A model generated the notes under the pieces. That model did not search any database and had not been told where the DNA came from. It worked only from the letters and a program-made list of their open reading frames with translations. From an uncultured Deinococcales bacterium (lineage in GTDB: Bacteria > Deinococcota > Deinococci > Deinococcales > JAAFIG01): a DNA stretch of 10,904 bases. Positions 108 through 10,904 of the stretch are shown one piece after another. A program made the position numbers and the translations under genes. Where the stretch lies: the NCBI GenBank assembly GCA_964244895.1, contig CAXTKV010000069.1, forward strand, positions 1 through 10,904. Reading direction: 5' to 3'. Position 1 is the first letter of the stretch. Every line of letters begins with the position of its first letter.

Positions 108-117
108 CGGCTCGAGG

Positions 118-163
118 AACACCGTCCTGGACGCGTTCTGGAATATGCGTGCTGGACGGTGTT
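118..163. repeat. 46-bp palindromic REP-like element, copy 1
   Basis: AACACCGTCCTGGACGC-gttctggaatat-GCGTGCTGGACGGTGTT; starts 10 nt after the metK stop; preceded by CTCGAG (111-116). Confidence 0.9.
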
Positions 164-272
164 CTCGTGTCGATCCGGCTCGAGAATCGCGATCTGGGCG
201 CACTCGAGCCGAGGTTGGAACCCCTGCGAACGTCAGCCTCGTTTCACGCGTTCACCATCGCGTGTATGCAGA

Positions 273-299
273 GCGATTCCTCGAGTCTCGAGGAATCGC
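273..299. repeat. Perfect inverted repeat, 13-bp arms with 1-nt spacer
   Basis: GCGATTCCTCGAG-T-CTCGAGGAATCGC; lies over the -35 region of the predicted dsRBD promoter. Confidence 0.8.
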
Positions 300-302
300 G
301 CG

Positions 303-311
303 TGTTACAGT
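303..311 (+). promoter_or_regulatory. Putative extended -10 promoter of the dsRBD gene
   Basis: TGtTACAGT fits TGnTAnnnT, about 85 nt upstream of ATG 396. Confidence 0.5.
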
Positions 312-318
312 GCGCTCA

Positions 319-373
319 TTCCTCGGTCTCAAGCCGCGTCCGGTGCGACGGGCGCGACTTCAGACCGAGCGAA
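319..373 (+). promoter_or_regulatory. Long 5' UTR RNA stem-loop upstream of the dsRBD gene
   Basis: Pairs 322-329/362-369, 331-333/358-360 and 335-342/349-356 (19 bp, two 1x1 mismatches, 6-nt loop); extendable by 319-321/371-373. Confidence 0.6.
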
Positions 374-395
374 ATCCAGATCTCAAGGGAGCAAC

Positions 396-866
396 ATGAC
401 GAACCCGAAGGGCGACCTGATCGAATACTGTCGCGTCAACGGCCTGAGCGCACCGGGCTTCGAGACGATCGCGAGCGGCCCGGAACACCAGCCGGTCTTC
501 ACCACCCAGATCGTGATCTCGGATCGGGTCTGGGCGAGCGCGCAGGCGCGCACCAAACGCGATGCCGAAAAAGCGGCGGCGGCCCTGGCGCTCGGGGCGC
601 TCGAGCAGGGCGAACCCGTCGCGGGAACGGAACCCGTCGGGCAAACCGATCCGGATGCCCTGCCGACCGTCGTCAGGCTCGAACCCGAGGGCGAGGATTT
701 CGAGGACCCGTGGCCGATCTTTCCGGAAGTGCTGGCCAAAGCGCTCGAGGTGGCGAACGCTCGGGTGGACGCGGGCAAACGCGGCGAGGCCGCCGTGCGA
801 GAAGTCGGCGAGTTGGCGCTGGAACTCTACAAGGATTTGCTCGAGGATCTGGGCGAGTACAGCTAA
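396..866 (+). CDS. Standalone double-stranded RNA-binding motif (dsRBD/DSRM) protein, 156 aa
   Basis: ATG 396 follows RBS AAGGGAG (385-391). NPKGDLIEYC...GPEHQPVFTTQIVI....ASAQARTKRDAEKAAAALAL is the dsRBD signature. No RNase III catalytic domain; acidic linker and helical C-terminal region. The ORF-track start at 159 runs through intergenic repeats. Confidence 0.88.
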   Translation: MTNPKGDLIEYCRVNGLSAPGFETIASGPEHQPVFTTQIVISDRVWASAQARTKRDAEKAAAALALGALEQGEPVAGTEPVGQTDPDALPTVVRLEPEGEDFEDPWPIFPEVLAKALEVANARVDAGKRGEAAVREVGELALELYKDLLEDLGEYS

Positions 867-889
867 AACACCGTCAGGTAAGGCTGTCG

Positions 890-895
890 TAGAAT
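890..895 (+). promoter_or_regulatory. -10 box for a leaderless methyltransferase mRNA
   Basis: TAGAAT, then 6 nt (CCGTTC), then GTG 902; no obvious SD sequence. Confidence 0.65.
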
Positions 896-901
896 CCGTT
901 C

Positions 902-1504
902 GTGGCAAAGCCGGAGCGCGTGCGCGAGATTTACGACCATCAGGCCGCGAATTACGACGCGGTCGGCGGGGCGGGCAGGCTCGAGACGATGCGCGCGAAA
1001 CTCTTCAGCCAAGCGCGCGGCGACGTGCTGGAATTGGGCGTTGGAACGGGCGCGACCTTCGCGCATTACCCGAAGCTCTCGAGCCTGACGGGTCTGGACC
1101 TGAGCGAGAAAATGCTGGAAAAAGCCCGAGCCAGGGCGGACGCGCTGCCGTTTTTGGTCGAGTTGTGGCAGACGGATTTTCAACGCATTCCCTTCGGTGA
1201 CGGCAGTTTCGATACCGTCTCGAGTTCGCTCGGGCTGTGCGGCATTCCCGACCCGGCGCTCTTGTTTTCAGAAATCCGGCGCGTCTTGCGTCCCGGTGGG
1301 CGCTTGCTGGCGCTCGAGCACGTCCGACCGCCGAACGCCGTGCTGGGTCTGGGCGCGGACGCGATCGATCCCATCTGGGACAGGATCGTGGGTTGCCACG
1401 CGAACCGTCGGACGCTCCGTTTGTTGGAGCAGTCGGGTTTCAAATTGCGGATTCTGGAGCGGCACCTGCTGGGCGTGCTGGTCAGCCTGATCGCGGAACC
1501 CTGA
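902..1504 (+). CDS. Class I SAM-dependent methyltransferase (Methyltransf_11/UbiE-like; substrate unknown)
   Basis: Motifs VLELGVGTG, GLDLSEKML, PFGDGSFDTV, EIRRVLRPGGRLLALEH. Confidence 0.92.
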   Translation: MAKPERVREIYDHQAANYDAVGGAGRLETMRAKLFSQARGDVLELGVGTGATFAHYPKLSSLTGLDLSEKMLEKARARADALPFLVELWQTDFQRIPFGDGSFDTVSSSLGLCGIPDPALLFSEIRRVLRPGGRLLALEHVRPPNAVLGLGADAIDPIWDRIVGCHANRRTLRLLEQSGFKLRILERHLLGVLVSLIAEP

Positions 1505-1516
1505 AGTGTTCTGTGT

Positions 1517-1735
1517 TCAGGTGGCTCGAGCCTCGTCTTGGCCCAGATTCTGAACCCCGGCGCAGCTCGGGCAGATGCAGGACTGACCGCGTCGCTCATC
1601 CGGGATGCGCTCGAGAACATCTTGGGAAATGACGGCGCGAAAGCACCAGCAGTCCTCGATGGGTTTTCCTCGCTGGATCGCGCAGGCGTTCCCCTGGCCG
1701 CACAGAGAGCAGATGTTCGCATCCGGGGCGTTCAC
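1517..1735 (-). CDS. Cysteine-rich CWC family small protein
   Basis: CSLCGQGNAC...CWC...CICPSC pattern typical of Cys_rich_CWC; GTG start 6 nt after a TAGACT -10 box. Confidence 0.85.
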   Translation of the reverse strand: MNAPDANICSLCGQGNACAIQRGKPIEDCWCFRAVISQDVLERIPDERRGQSCICPSCAGVQNLGQDEARAT

Positions 1736-1741
1736 GAAGGC

Positions 1742-1747
1742 AGTCTA
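1742..1747 (-). promoter_or_regulatory. -10 box for a leaderless CWC mRNA
   Basis: Minus strand TAGACT-GCCTTC-GTG(1735). Confidence 0.6.
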
Positions 1748-1754
1748 CTCGAGA

Positions 1755-1800
1755 AACACCGTCCTGGACGCAATTTAAGAAATACGTGCTGGACGGTGTT
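1755..1800. repeat. 46-bp palindromic REP-like element, copy 2
   Basis: AACACCGTCCTGGACG-caatttaagaaata-CGTGCTGGACGGTGTT; preceded by CTCGAG (1748-1753); between the permease 3' end and the CWC promoter. Confidence 0.9.
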
Positions 1801-1930
1801 CCCCGAAATCAACCTCACCGAAGCGAGCCGTTGAGCATGAACGACTCGAAATCGCGGGCTCGAGAAACGGATTGGCTCGAGTCGGTTCGAGAACGAGCCG
1901 CGCGAGCCTCGGGAACGCAGCCTCAGCGAT

Positions 1931-2710
1931 TCAGGCCGGAATATCGCGGGTTCGCCAACGCCACACCGCCACCGCGAAACCGATGGCGCCGATCAGCAGC
2001 CAGGCCAATACCGTGCCCCACGGCGCGCCCGCGTTGACGGCCCCTTCGGGCTGGTACGCGCCCCAGATGCTCAAACTGCCCAACCATTTCGCGCCCGTCA
2101 CCACGTCCGCGATGATCGAAATCGCGTATTGCAAGCCGAACAGCCCGAAGACCGCGCCCGTCACCGAGCCCCGATCCCGCGCGAAGGCCGCGATGGCGTA
2201 AGCCACGCCCAGCCACAGCGCGCCGAAGGCGAAGCCCAACACCGCGAAGCGCCACCACGGGGCGGACGCGAACAGGTAGAGCGTTCCGAGCGTCACCAGC
2301 AGGATCACGACCAGTCCGACGAAGCCCGAAACGATCCGGCTCGAGAACCAGCGCGCCCTGGATACGGGCAGTGAAAGCTCGAAATGGATCGTGCCGCGCT
2401 CGATCATGCCGCTGATCGCGCCCGCGCTGCCCGCCGCGAACGCGATCACCACCAGCGGCCAGGTCAGGCTCAGGGATCGCGCCGAGACGTAGCCGACCGG
2501 GCTGGTGAAGCCCGAAACGCTGATCTTGAAGGCGTCCAGAACGGCGGGCGGCAAGCCCTTGATGAATTCCTGGAGCGCCGCCGCATTCTGGTTGTGCAGC
2601 GCGCCCAACCCGACCCCGCCGAGCGCCACCGCGCAGAAGGCCGCAATCGCGTACCAGACGAGACCGACCCGTCCGGTGCGCAGTGCCTGCGCCAGAACGG
2701 TGCGGTTCAT
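1931..2710 (-). CDS. ABC-2 type exporter permease subunit
   Basis: About six hydrophobic segments; ERGTIHFELSLPVSRARW resembles the ABC-2 permease motif; ATGA overlap with the ATPase gene. Confidence 0.9.
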   Translation of the reverse strand: MNRTVLAQALRTGRVGLVWYAIAAFCAVALGGVGLGALHNQNAAALQEFIKGLPPAVLDAFKISVSGFTSPVGYVSARSLSLTWPLVVIAFAAGSAGAISGMIERGTIHFELSLPVSRARWFSSRIVSGFVGLVVILLVTLGTLYLFASAPWWRFAVLGFAFGALWLGVAYAIAAFARDRGSVTGAVFGLFGLQYAISIIADVVTGAKWLGSLSIWGAYQPEGAVNAGAPWGTVLAWLLIGAIGFAVAVWRWRTRDIPA

Positions 2711-3591
2711 CGCGCCACCGGCTGCGCGTGGTTCTGCTCGAGCAGTTCTTCCAGGCCGATACCACCGTATTCAGCGCGCTCCACGCTGAAGGCTGCGAGT
2801 TTCGGCAGCGCGTCCTCGAGCAGGCGTTCTCCGGTCAGAATCGCGTGGGTCGGCGCGACCAGGTGCGGTTTCCAGGCTTCCAAACCGCGCGCTTCGATGG
2901 GCTCGCGCGTCCAGACGGACAGCCTGTGCGTGCCGCCCGTCAGCGCGGGTACGGTTCCGGTTTGCAGCACGCGCCCGCGGTCGATCACGGCGATGCGGTC
3001 GCACAGCGTCTGGACTTCCGCCAGGCTGTGAGAGCTGAATAAGACCGTCGCGCCCGCTCCGGCGCGCTCGCGCAGCACGGACAGCAGTTTTTCCTGAGCG
3101 ATCGGGTCGAGGCCGGAGGTGGGTTCGTCCAGCACCAGCAGTTCCGCGCTCGAGGTCAGCAATCTCAGGAGCGCGATCTTCTGGCGGTTGCCCTTGGAAA
3201 GCGTGCGCATGGGCTGGTTGATCGGGACTTCCCAGTCTCGCGCCAGCCCCGCCAGGCGCGAGCGATCCAGCCCGGCCACCGACGCCTGGTAATCCAGCCA
3301 TTCCCGACCCGAAAGGCCGTCCGGCAAGCGCACGTCGCCGGGCAGCCAGGCCACGCGCGCGTGCAGCGCGGGCACGTCCGTCCACGGGTCGAGGCCCAAA
3401 ACGTTCAGCCTTCCTGACGTGGCCCGGATGAAGCCCATCACGCAAGAGAGCGCGGTCGTCTTGCCCGCGCCATTGACCCCGACCAGCCCGAACAATTCCC
3501 CCCGTGACACCTCGAGACTCAGGCCGTCCAGGGCGCGCGTTCGGGCGTAGGTTTTGGTGACGGATTCGAGCTTGATGGCTGTCTGGGTCAC
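2707..3591 (-). CDS. ABC transporter ATP-binding protein
   Basis: Walker A GVNGAGKT, signature LSKGN, Walker B LLVLDEP, H-loop SSH; GTGA overlap with the regulator stop. Confidence 0.95.
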   Translation of the reverse strand: MTQTAIKLESVTKTYARTRALDGLSLEVSRGELFGLVGVNGAGKTTALSCVMGFIRATSGRLNVLGLDPWTDVPALHARVAWLPGDVRLPDGLSGREWLDYQASVAGLDRSRLAGLARDWEVPINQPMRTLSKGNRQKIALLRLLTSSAELLVLDEPTSGLDPIAQEKLLSVLRERAGAGATVLFSSHSLAEVQTLCDRIAVIDRGRVLQTGTVPALTGGTHRLSVWTREPIEARGLEAWKPHLVAPTHAILTGERLLEDALPKLAAFSVERAEYGGIGLEELLEQNHAQPVAR

Positions 3592-4091
3592 GGTTTCACC
3601 GTCCTCTGAGATGCGGGTTTCTGGGGCGCGGTCGGGTCGGCGGGGTCTTCGAACTGGTAATTCTCAAAAAACCTGCGGATCGTCTCGGTCAGGGCTTCGT
3701 AGACGTGCGCGATCCGCTCGAGCTTGGTGCGAGAGGCGGGCGTCAGGTTCTCGAGTTGGGCGGCGCGTTCGATCAGCTTGGAAAACTCGAGCGATTTTTC
3801 CAGGGTGGTTCGCAGGTATTGGACGTATTCGTCAGGAGCAACGCGGTAGTAATCGCGCCGATCGCCGGGCAGGCTGAGCTTCTCGATCAGCGTGAAGGCT
3901 TGCAGTTGCCGGGCGGAGGTGGATGCGCTCGCCTTGGAGATGCCGAGTTGTTCGGCCATCTCGTCCAGCCCGAGCATCGGGGCGTCGGTGATCATCAAGA
4001 GGCCGTAAATCCGCCCCAGGATGCGCGGCAGGCCGTACTGCTCGAAGTACAGTCCGAAATCTTCGATGACTTTTTCTCGGGGTTCCAGCAC
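3588..4091 (-). CDS. GbsR/MarR family transcriptional regulator
   Basis: FGLYFEQYGLPRILGRIYGLL...LDEMAEQLGISKASAST...PGDRRDYY is typical of GbsR-type winged-HTH proteins; first gene of the ABC operon. Confidence 0.9.
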   Translation of the reverse strand: MLEPREKVIEDFGLYFEQYGLPRILGRIYGLLMITDAPMLGLDEMAEQLGISKASASTSARQLQAFTLIEKLSLPGDRRDYYRVAPDEYVQYLRTTLEKSLEFSKLIERAAQLENLTPASRTKLERIAHVYEALTETIRRFFENYQFEDPADPTAPQKPASQRTVKP

Positions 4092-4097
4092 GCGCAG

Positions 4098-4126
4098 ATT
4101 GTAGTTCGTCCAGTTCGTTCAGTCAA
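4098..4126 (-). promoter_or_regulatory. Sigma70-type promoter of the regulator-ABC operon (leaderless)
   Basis: Minus strand TTGACT (4126-4121), 17 nt, TACAAT (4103-4098), 6 nt, GTG (4091). Confidence 0.85.
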
Positions 4127-4142
4127 TACTGAACGAACTGGA
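4109..4142. promoter_or_regulatory. Putative operator of the GbsR/MarR regulator
   Basis: Perfect 15-bp inverted repeat TCCAGTTCGTTCAGT-caat-ACTGAACGAACTGGA overlapping the -35 box. Confidence 0.8.
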
Positions 4143-4163
4143 TGCTTGCGAGGGTATCTCGAG

Positions 4164-4209
4164 GACACCGTCCAGCACGCGAACTCAAGAATGCGTGCTG
4201 GACGGTGTT
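4164..4209. repeat. 46-bp palindromic REP-like element, copy 3 (overlaps the rnhB 3' end)
   Basis: gACACCGTCCAGCACGC-gaactcaagaat-GCGTGCTGGACGGTGTt with perfect 16-bp arms; preceded by CTCGAG (4158-4163). Confidence 0.92.
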
Positions 4210-4886
4210 GAGGTGTATCCGCCCGAAAACAGACCGTCCACCAGGAGCGCAATTGGCCTGAACGAACGGCGGTGTTCGGGACAAGGCCCGAGGCGCTCCA
4301 AGGCTTCCCGGTGGGTTTTTGCACCGTAACCCTTGTGCGCGCCGAAACCGTAACCGGGAAACGCCACCTCGAGTTCGCGCATGCGCTCGTCGCGGGCGGT
4401 CTTGGCGATGATGCTGGCGGCGGCCACGCTGTAACTCGAGCCATCGGCGCGCGGCGGGGCCAGGAAGGGCAATCGCGTCTCGAGCTTCAGATAATCGGTC
4501 ACGAGCGCGTCGGGCGAAGGCTCGAGCCTGGAAAGGGCGCGAAGCGCGGCGCGTTTGGTGGCGTTCAGCACGCCGAACTCGTCCACTTCAACCGATTCCG
4601 CGAACTCGAGCGCCCAGGCCACGGCCTCGCGCTGAATCTCGAGCGAAAGGCGTTCGCGAGACTTCGGCGTGAGCGTCTTGGAGTCGCGGTACGCGCGCGA
4701 TTGAGCATCGAAGGGCAAAATCACCGCACCGACCGCGACCGGGCCAGCCCACGCGCCCCGACCGGCCTCGTCCACGCCCGCCACCTTGAGCGCACCCCTG
4801 CCTCGAAGCTCGCACTCGAGCGACCACATCGCATCGACGATGTGTGCGTCGGTGGTTTTCGGGAACGCTCGCGGCTGAAATTTCAT
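4185..4886 (-). CDS. rnhB: Ribonuclease HII
   Basis: VAGVDEAGRG..AGPV, DSKTL, SVAAASIIAKTARD, YGFGAHKGY, GPCPEHRRSF motifs; exact start codon uncertain. Confidence 0.96.
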   Translation of the reverse strand: MKFQPRAFPKTTDAHIVDAMWSLECELRGRGALKVAGVDEAGRGAWAGPVAVGAVILPFDAQSRAYRDSKTLTPKSRERLSLEIQREAVAWALEFAESVEVDEFGVLNATKRAALRALSRLEPSPDALVTDYLKLETRLPFLAPPRADGSSYSVAAASIIAKTARDERMRELEVAFPGYGFGAHKGYGAKTHREALERLGPCPEHRRSFRPIALLVDGLFSGGYTSTPSSTHS

Positions 4887-5039
4887 CTGAACCCTCGAAT
4901 TCGTGTTGTTGGATGAAACGTCTTTCAGCCCAGTATCCCTCAGTTTCAGCTCAGCCCAGACACCGCTTCGCGCATCCAGGATGTCGATACGGCCCCGTAA
5001 GAGTTCGGTAGCACTTCATTCATTAGGCTCGAGGTTCAA

Positions 5040-7547
5040 ATGCGTTCTTTCCAATCATCCCTGACGCTGACGGCGCCCATCGCGATCCTGCTGATCGCCT
5101 GCTCGGGCAATCAGACCCCGGTGGTCTCCGGCATCGCGCTGACGCCGAACGGCACCGTTCAGCCGTGCGCGACCGTCGACATCAACGTCACTGCCAGCGC
5201 TTCCCAGGGTGCGAAACTCAAATATCTTTACGCCGTCGTGGACGCCAACGATGCCAGTTTAACGCCGCGTCCAGATGCGTTCGTGGCCTCGAGCGGCCCG
5301 AGCGCCAGCTTCGCGATCTCGCCCAGCCCCAGCCTGAACGCGACCGTGCGCGTGCGGGTCGAAGTCAGCGATGGTGCGCACACCATCACCGCCCTGAGCG
5401 CGCCGATCACCGTGCTGGGCGGGCCGGGGCAACCGTGCGGCAGCATCGAAGGTCGAGTGCGCCCATCGATCCGGTTCTTCGGCCTGTCCGCCGGAATGCC
5501 TGCGGGCGCTGAATTCGTGCCGGACGAAGCGATCCTCAAGCTCAAACCCGAGAATCTGCGCCCGAGCGACCTGACTTCGAGCCGCGACCGCATCTCGTTC
5601 GCCCGCCCCATCGCGGGCGGCGCGGGCGTGATCGAGCGCCCTGGCGCACGACCGCTCGGTCTGGAAGCCCAAAGCGTCCGCGCCGACAGCCCAATAGGGC
5701 TCGAGACGCTGCGCTGGATCGCGCAATTGCGGGCCCGCCCGGATGTCGAATACGCCGAACCCAACCTGATCCTGCGCGCCCAGACCGTACCCACAGATCC
5801 GCTCTACGCGGGTAGCGGAAACCCGGCCCGCAGCCAGCGCTGGCATTACGAGATGCTGAACCTGCCCGCCGCGTGGGATCAATCGCTCGGCGCGGGCGCG
5901 ACGGTCGCGGTGATCGACACGGGCTTGCTCTGGAGCCAGACCGACCCTGCCCGCCGCCACCCGGACTTCGATTGCCAGGTCGCACCGGGCGTCCCCAAAG
6001 TCCTGCCCGGTTTCGATTTTCTTCAAGGTGACGCCGATCCTTACGACAGCGATCCGGGCGCGGAATACCACGGCACGCACGTCGCCGGAACTGTCGGCGC
6101 GTGCGCCAACAACGCTCTGGGCGGCGTCGGGGTCGCGTGGAACGCGCGCATCCTGCCGATCCGGGCGCTCAGCCAGCGCGGCGGCAGCCTCGAGGACATC
6201 GCCCGCGCGATCTACTGGGCCGTCGGTGCGAGCATCCCGGCCAGCTTCAACTCTGGCGCGAACGTGCCCGTCAACCCCAACCCGGCCAACGTCATCAACA
6301 TGTCGCTCGGTGGTCAAGGCCAACCCAGCCAGATCCTTCAGGACGCGATTGATGCGGCCACCGCTCGCGGCGCGGTGGTGGTGGTGGCGGCGGGCAACGA
6401 TGGCATCGACGCCTCCGGGTTCCTGCCCGCCAACCAGCGGGGCGTGATCGCGGTCGGTGCGCTCGGGCCGACCAGGTCTCGCACGTCGTATTCAAATTAC
6501 GGTCCGATCGTCAGCCTGATGGCTCCGGGTGGCGATCAGGGACTGCAGCACCGCACGGAGGACGGTGTGCTCTCGAGCATCGGCGTCTGTCCGAAAGATG
6601 CGAACGGCACGAACGTCATCGGTTGCGGCACCAGCGTCAACCCGAACTTCGAGTACGGTTTCGAGCAGGGCACCTCGATGGCCTCGCCGCACGTGGCGGG
6701 CACGGTCGCGCTGATGATGGGCGCTCAACCCAGCCTGCTCAACCCGACCGATCCGGCGCACAACTGGGTTCGGGTCGCGGGCATGCTGCACGACGCCTCG
6801 AGCCTGACGGGATTGAGCCTTTGCCAGCGCGGCTGCGGGGCGGGCCTGCTGGACGCCAGCAAGGCCGTCGCCAACGCCATCAGCGACACCAGCACCGGGC
6901 CGTTGCTGGTGCAAAGGGACGCGGGAACCGCATCCGGCGGGCTCGATCTGGGTTCCGGCCTGAGCAGCGCGAGCTTCAGCGTGCAGAACCTGGGCACCGA
7001 AACCGCCAGCGTCAGCCTCGACTCGAGCAGCCCCGGACTGAGCGTATCCCCGCGTCAGGCGAGCGTCGCGCCCGGCGAGGTGCTGCGCGTGACCGTCAAT
7101 CTGCAGCGCTTTGGTCTGACCGAAGGAGCATACGGCTCGAGCATCGCGCTGTCCTACGGCAATCGCAGCTTCGTACAACCCGTCTATTACACCCAGGGCG
7201 GCCCCGGAAGCCTGGCGGACACGACCAACGTGCGCGTCAGGTTGTACCGCCGCGATTACGCCTGCCAGTCCAACGAGCAGCGCCTGAACTTTCCGGGATT
7301 GGGCGTGGATCAGGACGGGCACTTCCGCTTTGGCACCCTGGAGAACGGCACCTACGACCTGGTCGCGTACCGCCTGAGCAATGACGGCGCGGACGGCGCA
7401 GTCGTGACCGAACTGGGCCGCCTGGACGACATCGAGGTCGGCGATCAGGGCTTGCGGTTGCAATCTCAGGATGTCGCGCTCGAAGCGGTCAATTTGACCA
7501 TCGGCGCCGAACGACCCGCCTCGAAGAGCTGCATTCCAAAGAACTGA
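5040..7547 (+). CDS. Lipoprotein subtilisin-like serine protease (peptidase S8) with accessory beta-rich domains
   Basis: Lipobox LLIAC; catalytic motifs VAVIDTG, HGTHVAG, AAGN, GTSMASPHVAG; propeptide end VEYAEPN; GAGG upstream of the ATG. Confidence 0.93.
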   Translation: MRSFQSSLTLTAPIAILLIACSGNQTPVVSGIALTPNGTVQPCATVDINVTASASQGAKLKYLYAVVDANDASLTPRPDAFVASSGPSASFAISPSPSLNATVRVRVEVSDGAHTITALSAPITVLGGPGQPCGSIEGRVRPSIRFFGLSAGMPAGAEFVPDEAILKLKPENLRPSDLTSSRDRISFARPIAGGAGVIERPGARPLGLEAQSVRADSPIGLETLRWIAQLRARPDVEYAEPNLILRAQTVPTDPLYAGSGNPARSQRWHYEMLNLPAAWDQSLGAGATVAVIDTGLLWSQTDPARRHPDFDCQVAPGVPKVLPGFDFLQGDADPYDSDPGAEYHGTHVAGTVGACANNALGGVGVAWNARILPIRALSQRGGSLEDIARAIYWAVGASIPASFNSGANVPVNPNPANVINMSLGGQGQPSQILQDAIDAATARGAVVVVAAGNDGIDASGFLPANQRGVIAVGALGPTRSRTSYSNYGPIVSLMAPGGDQGLQHRTEDGVLSSIGVCPKDANGTNVIGCGTSVNPNFEYGFEQGTSMASPHVAGTVALMMGAQPSLLNPTDPAHNWVRVAGMLHDASSLTGLSLCQRGCGAGLLDASKAVANAISDTSTGPLLVQRDAGTASGGLDLGSGLSSASFSVQNLGTETASVSLDSSSPGLSVSPRQASVAPGEVLRVTVNLQRFGLTEGAYGSSIALSYGNRSFVQPVYYTQGGPGSLADTTNVRVRLYRRDYACQSNEQRLNFPGLGVDQDGHFRFGTLENGTYDLVAYRLSNDGADGAVVTELGRLDDIEVGDQGLRLQSQDVALEAVNLTIGAERPASKSCIPKN

Positions 7548-7554
7548 TCTCGCA

Positions 7555-7600
7555 AACACCGTCCAGCACGCTATTCTTAAAACGCGTGCCCGACGGTGTC
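7555..7600. repeat. 46-bp palindromic REP-like element, copy 4
   Basis: AACACCGTCCAGCACGC-tattcttaaaac-GCGTGCCCGACGGTGTc between convergent stops (7547 and 7612); preceded by CTCGCA; loop orientation reversed relative to copies 2 and 3. Confidence 0.9.
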
Positions 7601-7611
7601 CCGGTGAGCGC

Positions 7612-7794
7612 TCAGTCGTCGGCGGGCATCTGCGCGTCAGGACTCGAGTACGCCCAGACATCCCAGCCCGCCAGCCTGGACGGCGTGCATTCCACACCCA
7701 CGCCGCGCTCGGCCAGTTTCTGACTGAGCCGCCTGGCCTGCGCGTTCGAGAGCCCAGAGTCGATCAGGAAACGCGGGCGTTCGGGGTTGGTCAT
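7612..7794 (-). CDS. Small hypothetical protein, 60 aa
   Basis: MTNPERPRFLIDSGLSNAQARRLSQKLAERGVGVECTPSRLAGWDVWAYSSPDAQMPADD; ATG 7794 lies 6 nt after minus-strand TACCCT (7806-7801), the same leaderless geometry as three other genes here. Confidence 0.6.
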   Translation of the reverse strand: MTNPERPRFLIDSGLSNAQARRLSQKLAERGVGVECTPSRLAGWDVWAYSSPDAQMPADD

Positions 7795-8215
7795 GAACAA
7801 AGGGTACGGATTGAAGATTAAAACAAATGAAAAACGGATCGGTTTCGTGCAAGGCGCGAAAGTCCTTCAACCCAGGCTCGAGAAAAACCGATCGGGGCTT
7901 CGAGTGAGCCGATGAAACGGGACGGCTCGGCACGGAAGCCACCCGGATTTCTAATACGGATTTCTAAAAGGATCGTTCAGACCTGAATCCGAACTCCGAA
8001 TCTGGCACCTGAAAGTCCTTCCGGGTCGAACCCTCGTTAAATCCTCGAGAAACCCCGCCCTGGGCGGCACAATCCGCGAGAGGCTCGAGCGGCGAGATGG
8101 AAAGGCCGCACCGCCAGAAAACCCAACCCGATCTCATAAGACGATCAAACAGCGTGCTAGAATCTCGCGCGATGCAACGAGGCGCAAGCTGTCTGGAGGG
8201 CTTTGGCGGGTCGTG

Positions 8216-8252
8216 AAAACCCCCGACGGGCGCTCGAGTGCGCCGCCCGTCG
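8216..8252 (-). terminator. Probable intrinsic terminator downstream of tRNA-Arg
   Basis: 9-bp stem CGACGGGCG (8224-8232)/CGCCCGTCG (8244-8252), followed on the minus strand by GGGG-TTTT. Confidence 0.5.
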
Positions 8253-8267
8253 AAGGTGAGAGCTTGC

Positions 8268-8344
8268 TGGTGCGCCCGACAGGATTCGAACCTGTGACCT
8301 TTAGCTCCGGAGGCCAACGCTCTATCCAACTGAGCTACGAGCGC
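8268..8344 (-). tRNA. tRNA-Arg (anticodon CCG), 77 nt, CCA encoded
   Basis: Reverse complement GCGCTCG-TAGCTCAGTTGGATAGAGC-G-TTGGC-CT-CCG-GA-GCTAA-AGGTC-ACAGG-TTCGAAT-CCTGT-CGGGCGC-ACCA forms a full cloverleaf. Confidence 0.98.
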
Positions 8345-8353
8345 GCGCCAACG

Positions 8354-8382
8354 ACGCTAGCACCGCACGCAAATCAAGTCAA
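8354..8382 (-). promoter_or_regulatory. Sigma70-type promoter of tRNA-Arg
   Basis: Minus strand TTGACT (8382-8377), 17 nt, TAGCGT (8359-8354), with a TG extension. Confidence 0.7.
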
Positions 8383-8427
8383 GTTCAGCACAAAGAAGTG
8401 GGAACCCGTCCCGTAGGAGGACCTCAA

Positions 8428-10797
8428 GTGAGAGATACGCCAGGTAAACCCCGTTCAATCCCGGTTCGTGAAGAACCGGTTTCTCGTCGCACCATCATCT
8501 CGAGGGTCGTGCTCGGTGTGGTGGCCGTCGCCCTCCTGGCGGGCATGGTCGTGCAGTTCACGCCGAACATCGGCAACAGCTCCAGCCCGCAAGCCTCCGA
8601 GGGCGCGACCCTGATGCTGGTCAACGGTCAGCCCGTCAGTGAGCGCGAGATCGACCGTCTGAAAAAAGGCAGCCAGATTTTCAACATGGGTCTGGACGGC
8701 GTGGCCGCCCAGGATCTGGATAATTTGCTGGTCGATCAGGCCGTGCTGATCACCTCGGCGCGGCAGGACGCGGCGCGCGTGAATGTCTCCAACGGCGACG
8801 TCCGCAAGTTCATCGCCGACCTGCGCCAGCAGCAGGGACTGGCGACCGACGCGGATTACCTGGCGCGCATTCAGGGCTTCGGGTACACCGACGCCGGTTT
8901 CCGCGAGGCCGTGCGCCAGCAGTTGCAGTTGAACAAACGCATCAAGGAAATCACGGATGGCGTCACGGTCACCGATGCCGAGTTGAAATTCCATCTCGAA
9001 CAGAACCCGCAGAACTACAAGAACGAAGCCAGGATTCTGGCGCGACAGATCGTGGTCAGCGACAAGAAAGCCGCCGATGACGCCAAAGCCCGTCTGGACA
9101 AGGGCGAGGATTTCGGCGCGGTCGCCAAGGCCGTATCCAAGGAACTGGCGGATCAGAACGGCGCGTTGGGAGCGAAAAAAGGCGAGAGCCTGCCGCAACC
9201 AATCACCAAGATCGCGCTGCCATCCAAAATTGCCGATGAAGCCTTCAAGCTCGCCTCCGGCGCGACCAGCGGGATTCTCGAGGACAGCGGTAAGTTCTAC
9301 ATCATCAAAGTCGAAAAGGCCCTGCCCAGCGGCCCGCAGACCTTCGACGAGGCCAAAGCCAAACTGACCGAGGATGTCAAGGCCGCCAAGTCCAACCAGG
9401 CCATCGAGAACTGGGTCAAAGACATTCAGGCCAAAGCCAAAGTCGAATTCCCGAAGGGCTCCACGCTGTCGTTGTACAACCCGGTCGTCGCCAAGGTCGG
9501 GGACAACGAGATCAAACTTTCCGAACTGAACCGCAACGTCTACTTCAACCCGCAGATCGGGCAGTTCCTGCAGCAGGGCGGCGGACAGGGCGGCACGCTG
9601 ATCCAGCAGTTCTTCAAGCCGCAAGCGCTGGAAAACCTGATCAACCAGGCGGTCGCGGTTAACGCCGCCAAAGTCACGGGCAAGCCTTTCGTCGGTGCAG
9701 CAGCGGACATCGTGACGCAGATGCAGCAGTACCAGACTCGCGATGTCAAGGTCACGGACGCGGAGATAGAAAAGTACTACAAGGACAACGTCGCGCAGTA
9801 CACGACACCCGCCAGCGCGACCCTGAGCGATGCGACCTTCAGCACGCTGGCCGATGCCAAAGCCTTCCGCTCGAGCTTCGCGGCGACCGACGGCAAAAGC
9901 TTCGTCAGCGCGGTCGCCAAAGCCAAAGGCACCGCCAACGAAACCGGCAGCGTCACGCCAGAAACGATAGACCCAGCCTACAAGACCGCCGTGTTCGAGG
10001 CCAAAGCGCTCACCAAAGTCGGCGATACACAGATCTCCGAGGTGATCGAAAAGGGCAAGGACAAGGACTTGAAATTCCACGTCCTGTCGGTCACCAACCT
10101 GGTGGACAAAACCGTCAAGAGCTTCGAGGAATCCAAGGCCGACGCGACCGACAAGGCGCTGGCCATCAAGCGCTCCAGCGAAGGCCAGAAATGGCTGGCG
10201 GAAACCCGCAAGGGCGCGAAAGTCGTCAACAACGTTCAGGCCGTCAACGCGGAACTGGCGGCGCGCGCCGCCAAAGCCGACGCGGGCCGGTTCACCGTGA
10301 ACTCGCCCAGCGATGGCGCGCAACTCGACGCGCAGGATTTCATCATCTCCGGTTCCGGCAAGGCCGGTCAGGAACTCGAGATCGTGCAGAACACCAAATC
10401 GCTGGGTAAGGTCACGGTCGGCGCGGATGGGCAGTGGAGCTACTTCGTGTCCAAACCCGCCGCTGGCGATTACGCCTTCGAGGTTCGCCCGACCGCCGAC
10501 GCGACCCTCGGCAAGAAGTTCAGCGTCAACGTCGCTGCGGGTCGCGCGGACGCTATCAACGCCAAGTGCCCGTGCGTGCTGCGCATCGAAACCAAAGCAC
10601 CGAGCGCCACGATCCGCCTTCTGCAGGCGGGCAAGGAAATCTCCTCCGCGCCCGGCCCGGTTCATTTGTTCCGCGATCTTCAGGCGGGCAAGTACGTCGT
10701 CAAGGTCGAAGCGGCGGGTTACAAGACCTTCGAGAGCGCCGCCGACAAGTTCAGCGCGCCCGCCAACAAGAACATCATCGTTTCGCTGGACAAGTAA
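8428..10797 (+). CDS. Membrane-anchored SurA/PrsA/PpiD-like foldase (parvulin-type peptidylprolyl isomerase) with a C-terminal Ig-like extension
   Basis: GTG 8428 follows AGGAGG (8415-8420); N-terminal TM segment; SurA_N-like helical regions; rotamase motif ARQIVV...LDKGEDFGAVAK...GALG; second degenerate repeat of this architecture; strong codon bias. Confidence 0.88.
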   Translation: MRDTPGKPRSIPVREEPVSRRTIISRVVLGVVAVALLAGMVVQFTPNIGNSSSPQASEGATLMLVNGQPVSEREIDRLKKGSQIFNMGLDGVAAQDLDNLLVDQAVLITSARQDAARVNVSNGDVRKFIADLRQQQGLATDADYLARIQGFGYTDAGFREAVRQQLQLNKRIKEITDGVTVTDAELKFHLEQNPQNYKNEARILARQIVVSDKKAADDAKARLDKGEDFGAVAKAVSKELADQNGALGAKKGESLPQPITKIALPSKIADEAFKLASGATSGILEDSGKFYIIKVEKALPSGPQTFDEAKAKLTEDVKAAKSNQAIENWVKDIQAKAKVEFPKGSTLSLYNPVVAKVGDNEIKLSELNRNVYFNPQIGQFLQQGGGQGGTLIQQFFKPQALENLINQAVAVNAAKVTGKPFVGAAADIVTQMQQYQTRDVKVTDAEIEKYYKDNVAQYTTPASATLSDATFSTLADAKAFRSSFAATDGKSFVSAVAKAKGTANETGSVTPETIDPAYKTAVFEAKALTKVGDTQISEVIEKGKDKDLKFHVLSVTNLVDKTVKSFEESKADATDKALAIKRSSEGQKWLAETRKGAKVVNNVQAVNAELAARAAKADAGRFTVNSPSDGAQLDAQDFIISGSGKAGQELEIVQNTKSLGKVTVGADGQWSYFVSKPAAGDYAFEVRPTADATLGKKFSVNVAAGRADAINAKCPCVLRIETKAPSATIRLLQAGKEISSAPGPVHLFRDLQAGKYVVKVEAAGYKTFESAADKFSAPANKNIIVSLDK

Positions 10798-10810
10798 GTT
10801 GAAACGCGGG

Positions 10811-10845
10811 CTCGAGGATCGGCACAAAGCTGATCCTCGAGTTTT
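10811..10845 (+). terminator. Intrinsic terminator of the foldase gene
   Basis: CTCGAGGATCGGC-acaaa-GCTGATCCTCGAG-TTTT, a 13-bp stem with one G-U pair. Confidence 0.75.
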
Positions 10846-10854
10846 CCATTGAAG

Positions 10855-10900
10855 AACACCGTCTGGGACGTGGTTTCATGTTTGTGTCCAGCACGGTATT
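10855..10900. repeat. 46-bp palindromic REP-like element, copy 5 (diverged)
   Basis: AACACCGTCTGGGACG-tggtttcatgtttg-TGTCCAGCACGGTATT; same length and similar termini as the other copies. Confidence 0.75.
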
Positions 10901-10904
10901 CTTG

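Follow-up and report, generated by a model that had tools for sequence, protein, structure and literature searches.

The highly iterated palindrome HIP1 (GCGATCGC) has had no agreed function for three decades and is treated as a cyanobacterial, methylation-linked trait. Here we describe a different word, the palindrome CTCGAG, in a stretch of 10,904 nt from an uncultured Deinococcales bacterium (contig CAXTKV010000069.1; the window), in the genome from which the window comes and in related genomes. The uptake sequences of Pasteurellaceae and Neisseria also accumulate in a drive-like manner that alters proteins, but they are longer, non-palindromic and less dense than CTCGAG; as in those bacteria, competence genes are present in the Deinococcales family of the host. 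The Chi sites of RecBCD and AddAB resemble CTCGAG in being short, over-represented and frame-independent. Besides HIP1, alternate HIPs (GGCGCC, GCsGC, rCCGGy and GGGATCCC) have been described in cyanobacteria by Elhai (2015, PMC4390886), Xu et al. (2018, PMC5861425) and Rodriguez-Cruz (2026, PMC13756078). CTCGAG itself is the target of orphan methylases in Marinithermus, Meiothermus and Halomicrobium (m6A) and in Nocardia, partly within the same order as our host; the portion of that survey available to us reports clustering of the hexamer near dnaA in Nocardia only and no genome-wide excess, and the enzymes are patchily distributed and were not found in the host's family (Blow 2016, PMC4752239). 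Full-text searching, with most subscription journals outside its scope, retrieved no account of a CTCGAG excess in Deinococcales or Natrialbaceae, and the main texts of Elhai (PMC4390886) and Rodriguez-Cruz (PMC13756078) contain neither 'CTCGAG' nor 'Deinococc'. A CTCGAG motif of the honey bee was retrieved and, from the part of the report seen, set aside as unrelated (PMC3903499).

An earlier, sequence-only reading of the window had counted about 52 copies of the hexamer. The count is exactly 52, from position 111 to position 10836 (sites span 111..10841), or 4.8 per kb, and the large excess that it had claimed is borne out by 200 dinucleotide shuffles, in which a mean of 5.46 copies is expected (sd 2.41, maximum 17). 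The eight called genes (396..10797) hold 32 sites, where 2,000 synonymous shuffles give 6.0 ± 2.3 (maximum 14). The remaining 20 lie outside these genes in 2,170 bp, about 9 per kb (111, 179, 203, 280, 287, 1525, 1610, 1748, 1859, 1876, 4158, 5028, 7643, 7877, 8044, 8084, 8233, 8499, 10811 and 10836). Sites in all three codon phases had also been claimed. This holds in the window for two of them, with 21 CTC-GAG (Leu-Glu) and 11 xxC-TCG-AGy sites (xSer-Ser/Arg), but the third phase is not represented there, and its example at 1525 (Ala-Arg-Ala) is located outside the called genes. Site 8499, cited as a serine-phase example, was also scored as non-genic and becomes intragenic if the last open reading frame begins upstream of 8509.

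The excess is not limited to the window. The source genome (G000; 5.12 Mb, 62.7% GC, 91% complete, 328 contigs) contains 21,883 copies, one per 234 bp, which makes CTCGAG its most frequent hexamer, and every contig longer than 5 kb carries 1.6-8.3 per kb. Ratios of observed to expected counts (O/E) are 12.8, 9.1, 9.8, 3.4 and 1.25 under Markov models of order 0 to 4, of which order 3 keeps TCGA. With our own gene caller (4,401 genes, 80% coding), the density is 6.35 per kb in non-coding and 3.75 per kb in coding DNA; 73% of the coding sites are in the Leu-Glu phase and 823 in the third phase. Under a synonymous-codon model that keeps codons and proteins, O/E is 4.0, 16 and 7.4 by frame, the value of 16 belonging to the third phase, which is thus well represented genome-wide. 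The excess therefore does not vanish under models preserving codons or TCGA, and the statement of the sequence-only reading that codon-pair bias is an insufficient explanation is upheld. CTC-GAG encodes 59% of the Leu-Glu pairs, and Leu-Glu is the most over-represented dipeptide of the proteome (2.11; Glu-Leu 0.99). The excess doubles Leu-Glu in the proteome and is kept at the DNA level strongly enough to change proteins. In nuo orthologues Leu-Glu is about 1.4-2.2 times as frequent as in four of six outgroups; it is not above a Thermus-type genome and slightly above G025. Among spacers, convergent ones are richest (10.2 per kb), followed by tandem (7.5) and divergent ones (5.5), and a dip occurs at ribosome-binding sites. 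The 71 tRNA and tmRNA genes contain seven sites in 5,855 nt. A search for an extended consensus or a hairpin around the sites of this genome revealed only a weak one-base flank bias. An integrative-element cassette (C50:10089-18598, with methylase, helicase and PRTRC-like genes) carries 5-18 sites per kb in most of its genes, above core genes, and a prophage of the related genome G003 (C40, about 6-42 kb; L443-L445) contains the motif at a density somewhat below core genes. This prophage encodes a terminase, a capsid protein and a C5 methylase, and its capsid and tail-tube-like genes are CTCGAG-poor (about 1 per kb).

A phylogenetic survey, as the sequence-only reading had suggested, showed the excess in all 19 genomes of the uncultured family, with 4.3-6.8 sites per kb, i.e. 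one per about 150-230 bp (4.6-6.8 per kb in the 18 genomes besides G000, genome sizes being rounded). First-order O/E reaches 36-67 in family stretches of 46-53% GC, and the reversed word GAGCTC is present in only 0-25 copies in most family genomes. In the genera g4 and g5 (L191-L246), GGCC, CCGG and about twenty further palindromic hexamers are nearly absent beside the single favoured CTCGAG. Across 301 genomes of the order, for which densities were taken from a table, the motif is graded: 1.4-3.5 per kb in the genera g13, g22 and g24, 0.3-2.8 in f2, 0.7-2.9 in f4 and 0.6-1.6 in the Thermus-type genus g9. At most 0.46 per kb was found in 97 of 98 Deinococcaceae, the exception being G411 with 3.6. 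Synonymous odds ratios from samples of 15-60 kb, with small counts in two frames, indicate a preference for CTCGAG in G411, g22, g13, f4, f2 and g9 and its avoidance in a Deinococcus-type genome. Among 50 genomes picked for triple sites, CTCGAG exceeded the reversed control word more than 10-fold only in one family member and two Natrialbaceae. Among 80 relatives of Natrinema versiforme (families unlabelled), 39 have 2.2-4.4 sites per kb with the control at 0.62 or below. In Natrinema, CTC-GAG encodes Leu-Glu in 251 of 287 cases, with a 4-12-fold enrichment in the other frames, whereas two motif-poor genomes among these relatives show no preference. Most Deinococcales thus show a weaker excess, which Deinococcus-type genomes lack and which reappears in haloarchaea of the Natrialbaceae. 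In the latter (L247-L250, L451-L457, L461) it extends to all frames, with the same spacing trend. Among 80 IMG/VR loci with triple sites no recognisable phage of the uncultured family was detected, and a CRISPR spacer search yielded five spacers only. Thermus phage phiLo has no CTCGAG in 45 kb, but its TCGA content is low overall and it is hence uninformative.

The sites are retained far beyond the codons that contain them. Comparison of orthologous genes inside two genera showed 67-96% of CTCGAG sites in common against 39-74% identity at four-fold sites, and CTC is retained in 87-99% of cases within the motif vs 18-70% outside it. For the genomes G003 and G015 (55 orthologous genes), both partners have CTCGAG at 184 of 247 conserved Leu-Glu pairs. 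By a two-state estimate, which is rough and uses pairs that are not independent, Leu-Glu sites have a loss of 0.12 vs 0.43 + 0.44 (about 0.87) for the same codons off-motif; loss in the other two frames is 0.09 and 0.15. One-step precursors correspond to a full CTCGAG in the partner at 25 of 34 positions. Off the motif, the same codons thus disappear about seven times as fast as the sites do, and gain of sites is fast. The motif base was favoured in all 16 synonymous contrasts, which cover all six positions and five data sets, with odds ratios of 3-37 in G000, 8-134 in G006, 10-128 in g4 and 18-1301 in g5, and, with few exceptions, transversions are opposed no less than transitions. This indicates that the hexamer is recognised as a whole and excludes a deamination-repair bias. 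A C-only bias of the Vsr type (very-short-patch repair) was likewise ruled out, as T/A positions and transversions are held and no C5 enzyme occurs in G000 (Vsr itself was not searched for). Translational selection was rejected because the CTCGAG share of Leu-Glu pairs is flat across codon-bias deciles (0.56-0.61).

The spacing of the sites is near random overall (gap coefficient of variation 0.96 and dispersion 0.98 at 1 kb in G000, no clear short-range period), and there are fewer very close pairs. On the closed chromosome of G006 the sites are evenly spread (68-131 per 20 kb), with no origin or terminus bias in the 20 windows counted. Occupancy depends on the neighbouring site: in G000 it rises from 0.50 of Leu-Glu pairs with a neighbour closer than 24 bp to 0.72 beyond 384 bp, and in the other two frames from 0.22 to 0.52 and from 0.06 to 0.16. 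The logit slope per doubling of distance is 0.157 in G000 vs 0.005 in global and 0.056 in within-gene permutations, and 0.41-0.43 in G006, g4 and g5. It exceeds every permutation in these four sets and in Natrialbaceae (8 permutations for G000, 20 for the others), with a flattening or drop in the sparsest bins of g4 and Natrialbaceae. As filling rises with the distance to the next site, the benefit of a site appears to saturate over a few hundred bases, as expected of something that moves along DNA or samples stretches of it. This description of abundance, frame independence, retention and spacing can be regarded as almost certain.

CTCGAG shares with HIP1 a short palindromic form, an extreme excess both intergenically and in every reading frame, clade-wide occurrence and conservation beyond codons, so that the assignment to a HIP-like class in a deinococcotal host made by the sequence-only reading is supported. 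Its density is of the same order as that of the HIP1 core CGATCG in 30 kb of a plasmid of S. elongatus (3.8 per kb). Unlike HIP1, it is a different word, in another phylum and in a host of 62.7% GC; it varies by degrees across an order and has a counterpart in Natrialbaceae, it doubles Leu-Glu in the proteome, and no shared methylase was found. HIP1 itself is depleted in G000 (283 copies, O/E 0.28), a member of the Deinococcales and not a cyanobacterium. The excess is thus real and strong and has no settled explanation; it is HIP-like but not HIP1, and departs from its class in that the searches of the family revealed no methylase, either shared or of cognate type, for the hexamer or its core. 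According to the accessible text of Elhai, four HIP1-rich strains likewise have no recognisable core methylase (PMC4390886).

The contrast between Deinococcus and the rest of the order suggests the helicase-nuclease AddAB as a reader. According to the parts of two reports available to us, addAB is absent from Deinococcus, and Thermus AddAB processes broken and incoming DNA with strong activity on the latter; no Chi sequence is named there for the Thermus enzyme (PMC11143384, PMC9751324). Orthologues of addAB are abundant in the family, in Trueperaceae and in Meiothermus. G000 encodes addA as well as addB (C128:11540-14110; L681:241-2808), the latter matching PF21445. The N-terminus of this AddB, the domain in which Chi is recognised, aligns with that of Bacillus subtilis AddB (3u44_B, E 0.008), in segments that we take to be those forming the Chi pocket. 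Between two genera this N-terminus is more conserved (61%) than the C-terminus (45%). In Deinococcales AddB the N-terminal domain and the C-terminal cysteines are kept, and the canonical nuclease motif seems degenerate or missing. The motif-rich Deinococcaceae genome G411 has orthologues of both AddA and AddB, whereas in the motif-poor G028 the search run returned only a distant, different AddAB-like pair. Such a second, distant pair is common to G028 and G411 (L585, L586, L589, L590), and similar genes occur on Deinococcus plasmids. Metagenome scans for AddA loci gave no close relatives.

We therefore consider, tentatively, that CTCGAG may be a recombination signal read by an enzyme tracking along DNA, for which AddAB is the leading candidate and CTCGAG a palindromic Chi. 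On this view, AddAB would degrade broken or incoming DNA from the end inwards and stop on reaching a CTCGAG. Ends that bear the site would be preserved and recombine, whereas in ends that lack it resection would continue past the place in question, and the lost DNA would be restored from another copy of the chromosome. Alleles with CTCGAG would thereby win gene conversion, with a bias that would be strongest where the nearest other site is distant; a tracking enzyme predicts the distance dependence that is observed. The bias would be independent of methylation and would act on prophages and integrative elements too. The orphan CTCGAG methylases found in some relatives would then have arisen secondarily, as protection of so frequent a site against restriction of the XhoI or TaqI type. 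A Chi-like role fits the data at least as well as the methylation-linked, nucleoid-organising or uptake roles proposed by the sequence-only reading. That AddAB itself is the reader is slightly more doubtful than the tracking signal as such. The complete proposal, in which CTCGAG would be the Chi of Deinococcales AddAB and the first palindromic one, driven by biased conversion to one per 150 bp in the family, lost in Deinococcus together with AddAB and paralleled in Natrialbaceae, is somewhat unlikely to hold in full.

Several observations weigh against AddAB as the reader. CTCGAG is its own reverse complement, whereas described Chi sites are non-palindromic and strand-biased, as stated in the text of Xu et al. 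seen by us (PMC5861425), and recognition of CTCGAG by AddAB is a candidate activity only. Native AddA and AddB occur among proteins named Deinococcus roseus and D. cellulosilyticus, with AddB N-terminal segments resembling those of G411; as only one of 98 sampled Deinococcaceae is motif-rich, this clade is a probable counter-example. The genus g54, whose identity with the D. roseus clade is a guess, has 109 and 290 sites per genome and none in two samples of 15 kb. Thermus-type genomes possess AddAB, yet their density is no higher than 0.6-1.6 sites per kb. What preference they show may arise because a conserved TaqI-like methylase spares CTCGAG from an avoidance of TCGA: in two such genomes, CTCGAG accounts for 20 of 21 and 19 of 27 TCGA tetramers. 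PF12705 matches are present in a motif-rich haloarchaeon and also in a motif-poor one, so that the archaeal pattern is not accounted for by genes of AddAB type. Finally, uptake, mismatch repair directed by the site or a nucleoid protein bound at intervals would also produce the spacing dependence.

Alternatively, an unrecognised or recently lost methylase could mark CTCGAG, with mismatch repair following the marked strand as in Elhai's ratchet. Such site-directed repair likewise predicts lower loss, higher gain and distance dependence, and orphan m6A methylation of CTCGAG is active in three cultured relatives, Marinithermus hydrothermalis, Meiothermus ruber and M. chliarophilus, according to the part of the survey consulted (PMC4752239). 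The same source reports no CTCGAG methylation in M. silvanus or Haloterrigena turkmenica. The TaqI-like enzyme of G025 and the PaeR7I-like enzyme of G042, putative counterparts of the enzymes of the methylated relatives, were used as stand-in queries. Orthologues of the former were detected in 7 of 7 g9 genomes and in 0 of 19 family genomes; those of the latter in 16 of 301 order genomes and, at 47% identity or more, in 0 of 18 family genomes (best 32%). The TaqI_C domain is absent from G000 and from the single-contig genome G006, and XhoI nuclease (PF04555) from all 19 family genomes. The methylases of G000 are one of BREX type, one of type I, two linked to restriction and one on a mobile element, with putative specificities; it has no C5 methylase (PF00145), and those of five relatives are mostly unrelated. 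Family matches to PF01555, PF07669 and PF02086 form patchy clusters of at most 4, 4 and 8 genomes among the matches returned as loci. No family-shared methylase thus emerged from PF02086, PF07669, PF01555, PF00145, PF02384, PF05063 and PF12950 (PF00145, PF02384 and PF05063 in three to five relatives only), from motif patterns on six G000 frames or from the two cognate-type queries, and the methylation link claimed by the sequence-only reading, which had called for a search for an orphan CTCGAG or TCGA methylase, did not find support for this family. G000 is 91% complete, so the gene may be missing from the assembly, and an unrecognised enzyme or an m5C mark is possible. However, genus g13 has a mean of 2.15 sites per kb both with the PaeR7I-like enzyme (6 genomes) and without it (20), and in 30 kb of plasmid sequence from Allomeiothermus silvanus no hexamer is commoner than CTCGAG (O/E 6.5) while no CTCGAG appears in the published methylome of this species, m5C being poorly seen by that method. 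This indicates that methylation is not required. A repair bias restricted to C, as by Vsr, is incompatible with the held T/A positions and transversions. In archaea, the excess in a plasmid stretch of H. turkmenica is weak (O/E 2.3; odds ratios 1.4 and 0.9) and hence does not demonstrate enrichment without methylation; for Natrinema versiforme BOL5-4 the available part of a review lists only CTAG, CATTC and TCCTCGG as methylated motifs (PMC11033074). We consider methylation-directed repair or protection unlikely, and CTCGAG is probably a recognition signal independent of methylation. The TaqI-like methylase, kept in all seven g9 genomes (L480-L486), has a 72% identical copy in phage phiLo (L601:17312-18454).

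An explanation also put forward for HIP1 is a DNA-uptake tag: a competence receptor would prefer fragments with CTCGAG, and uptake and recombination would enrich the genome in the site. Uptake sequences are known to distort proteomes, the dependence on spacing over a few hundred bp fits short fragments, and intact ComEC was found in five of five genomes searched. The latter is weak support, since ComEC is found almost everywhere (10 of 14 controls) and also in D. radiodurans, a member of a family in which CTCGAG is avoided. We know of no uptake sequence that is palindromic, and CTCGAG is a strict hexamer without flanking consensus, whereas known uptake sequences are about 10 bp long, as given in the text seen of PMC5861425. 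HIP1 is reported to raise transformation and to co-vary with competence genes (PMC13756078, seen in part), but its effect requires the methylase, and none is shared in the Deinococcales family. The uptake explanation thus appears improbable.

Equally doubtful is a binding site for a nucleoid or chromosome-organising protein whose benefit saturates at close spacing, a role that Xu et al. proposed for HIP1 in the part of their report consulted (PMC5861425). A palindromic hexamer suits a dimer, and the even chromosomal spread, the peak in convergent spacers, the dip at ribosome-binding sites and the scarcity of very close pairs agree with it, but spacing is otherwise near random without a clear short-range period, and no candidate protein was identified. 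That the excess is a by-product of codon-pair bias, protein composition, repetitive extragenic palindrome (REP) repeats or assembly artefacts is highly improbable: although the Leu-Glu phase dominates coding sites and REP-containing spacers are richer (9.3 per kb), O/E is 4-16 in all frames under synonymous models and 36-67 at 46-53% GC, non-coding DNA away from REPs still has 5.7 sites per kb, usage is independent of codon-bias level, and the excess occurs in 19 separate assemblies at conserved orthologous positions.

REP-like hairpin repeats are found in the window at 119-163, 1756-1800, 4165-4209, 7556-7600 and 10856-10904. Three CTCGAG sites on the plus strand are followed by a hairpin core, 8 nt on at 111..163 and 1748..1800 and 7 nt on at 4158..4209. 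The REP core has about 2,500 matches in G000, of which 1,081 have a matching second arm within 70 nt. As only 402 of the 21,883 genomic sites adjoin such a core, the repeat is not the source of the excess. By Pfam, the eight genes of the window (396..10797) encode a dsRNA-binding protein, an S-adenosylmethionine (SAM) methyltransferase, an ABC-2 permease, an ABC ATPase, a MarR-like regulator, RNase HII, an S8 peptidase and a SurA/PPIase-like protein; the latter (8398-10797) has an additional C-terminal region without Pfam match. A tRNA-Arg(CCG) gene is located at 8268-8344 on the minus strand. Contigs of a related strain span the window with 785 differences, of which the 40 seen are too few for any inference.

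The family of this bacterium thus displays, in a phylum other than the Cyanobacteria, a word different from HIP1 that reaches a similar density, and a methylase common to the family appears to be lacking. The strength of the motif is graded across an order that includes the genetically tractable Thermus and Meiothermus and, in Deinococcus, a natural negative control, with a weaker parallel in cultured haloarchaea, so that models of selection, conversion drive, uptake and methylation become separable by experiment. If AddAB reads CTCGAG, a model thermophile would have its Chi, and a repair signal would be able to double a dipeptide in a proteome. If that Chi is indeed palindromic, highly iterated palindromes would be methylation-independent recombination signals able to rewrite the proteome.

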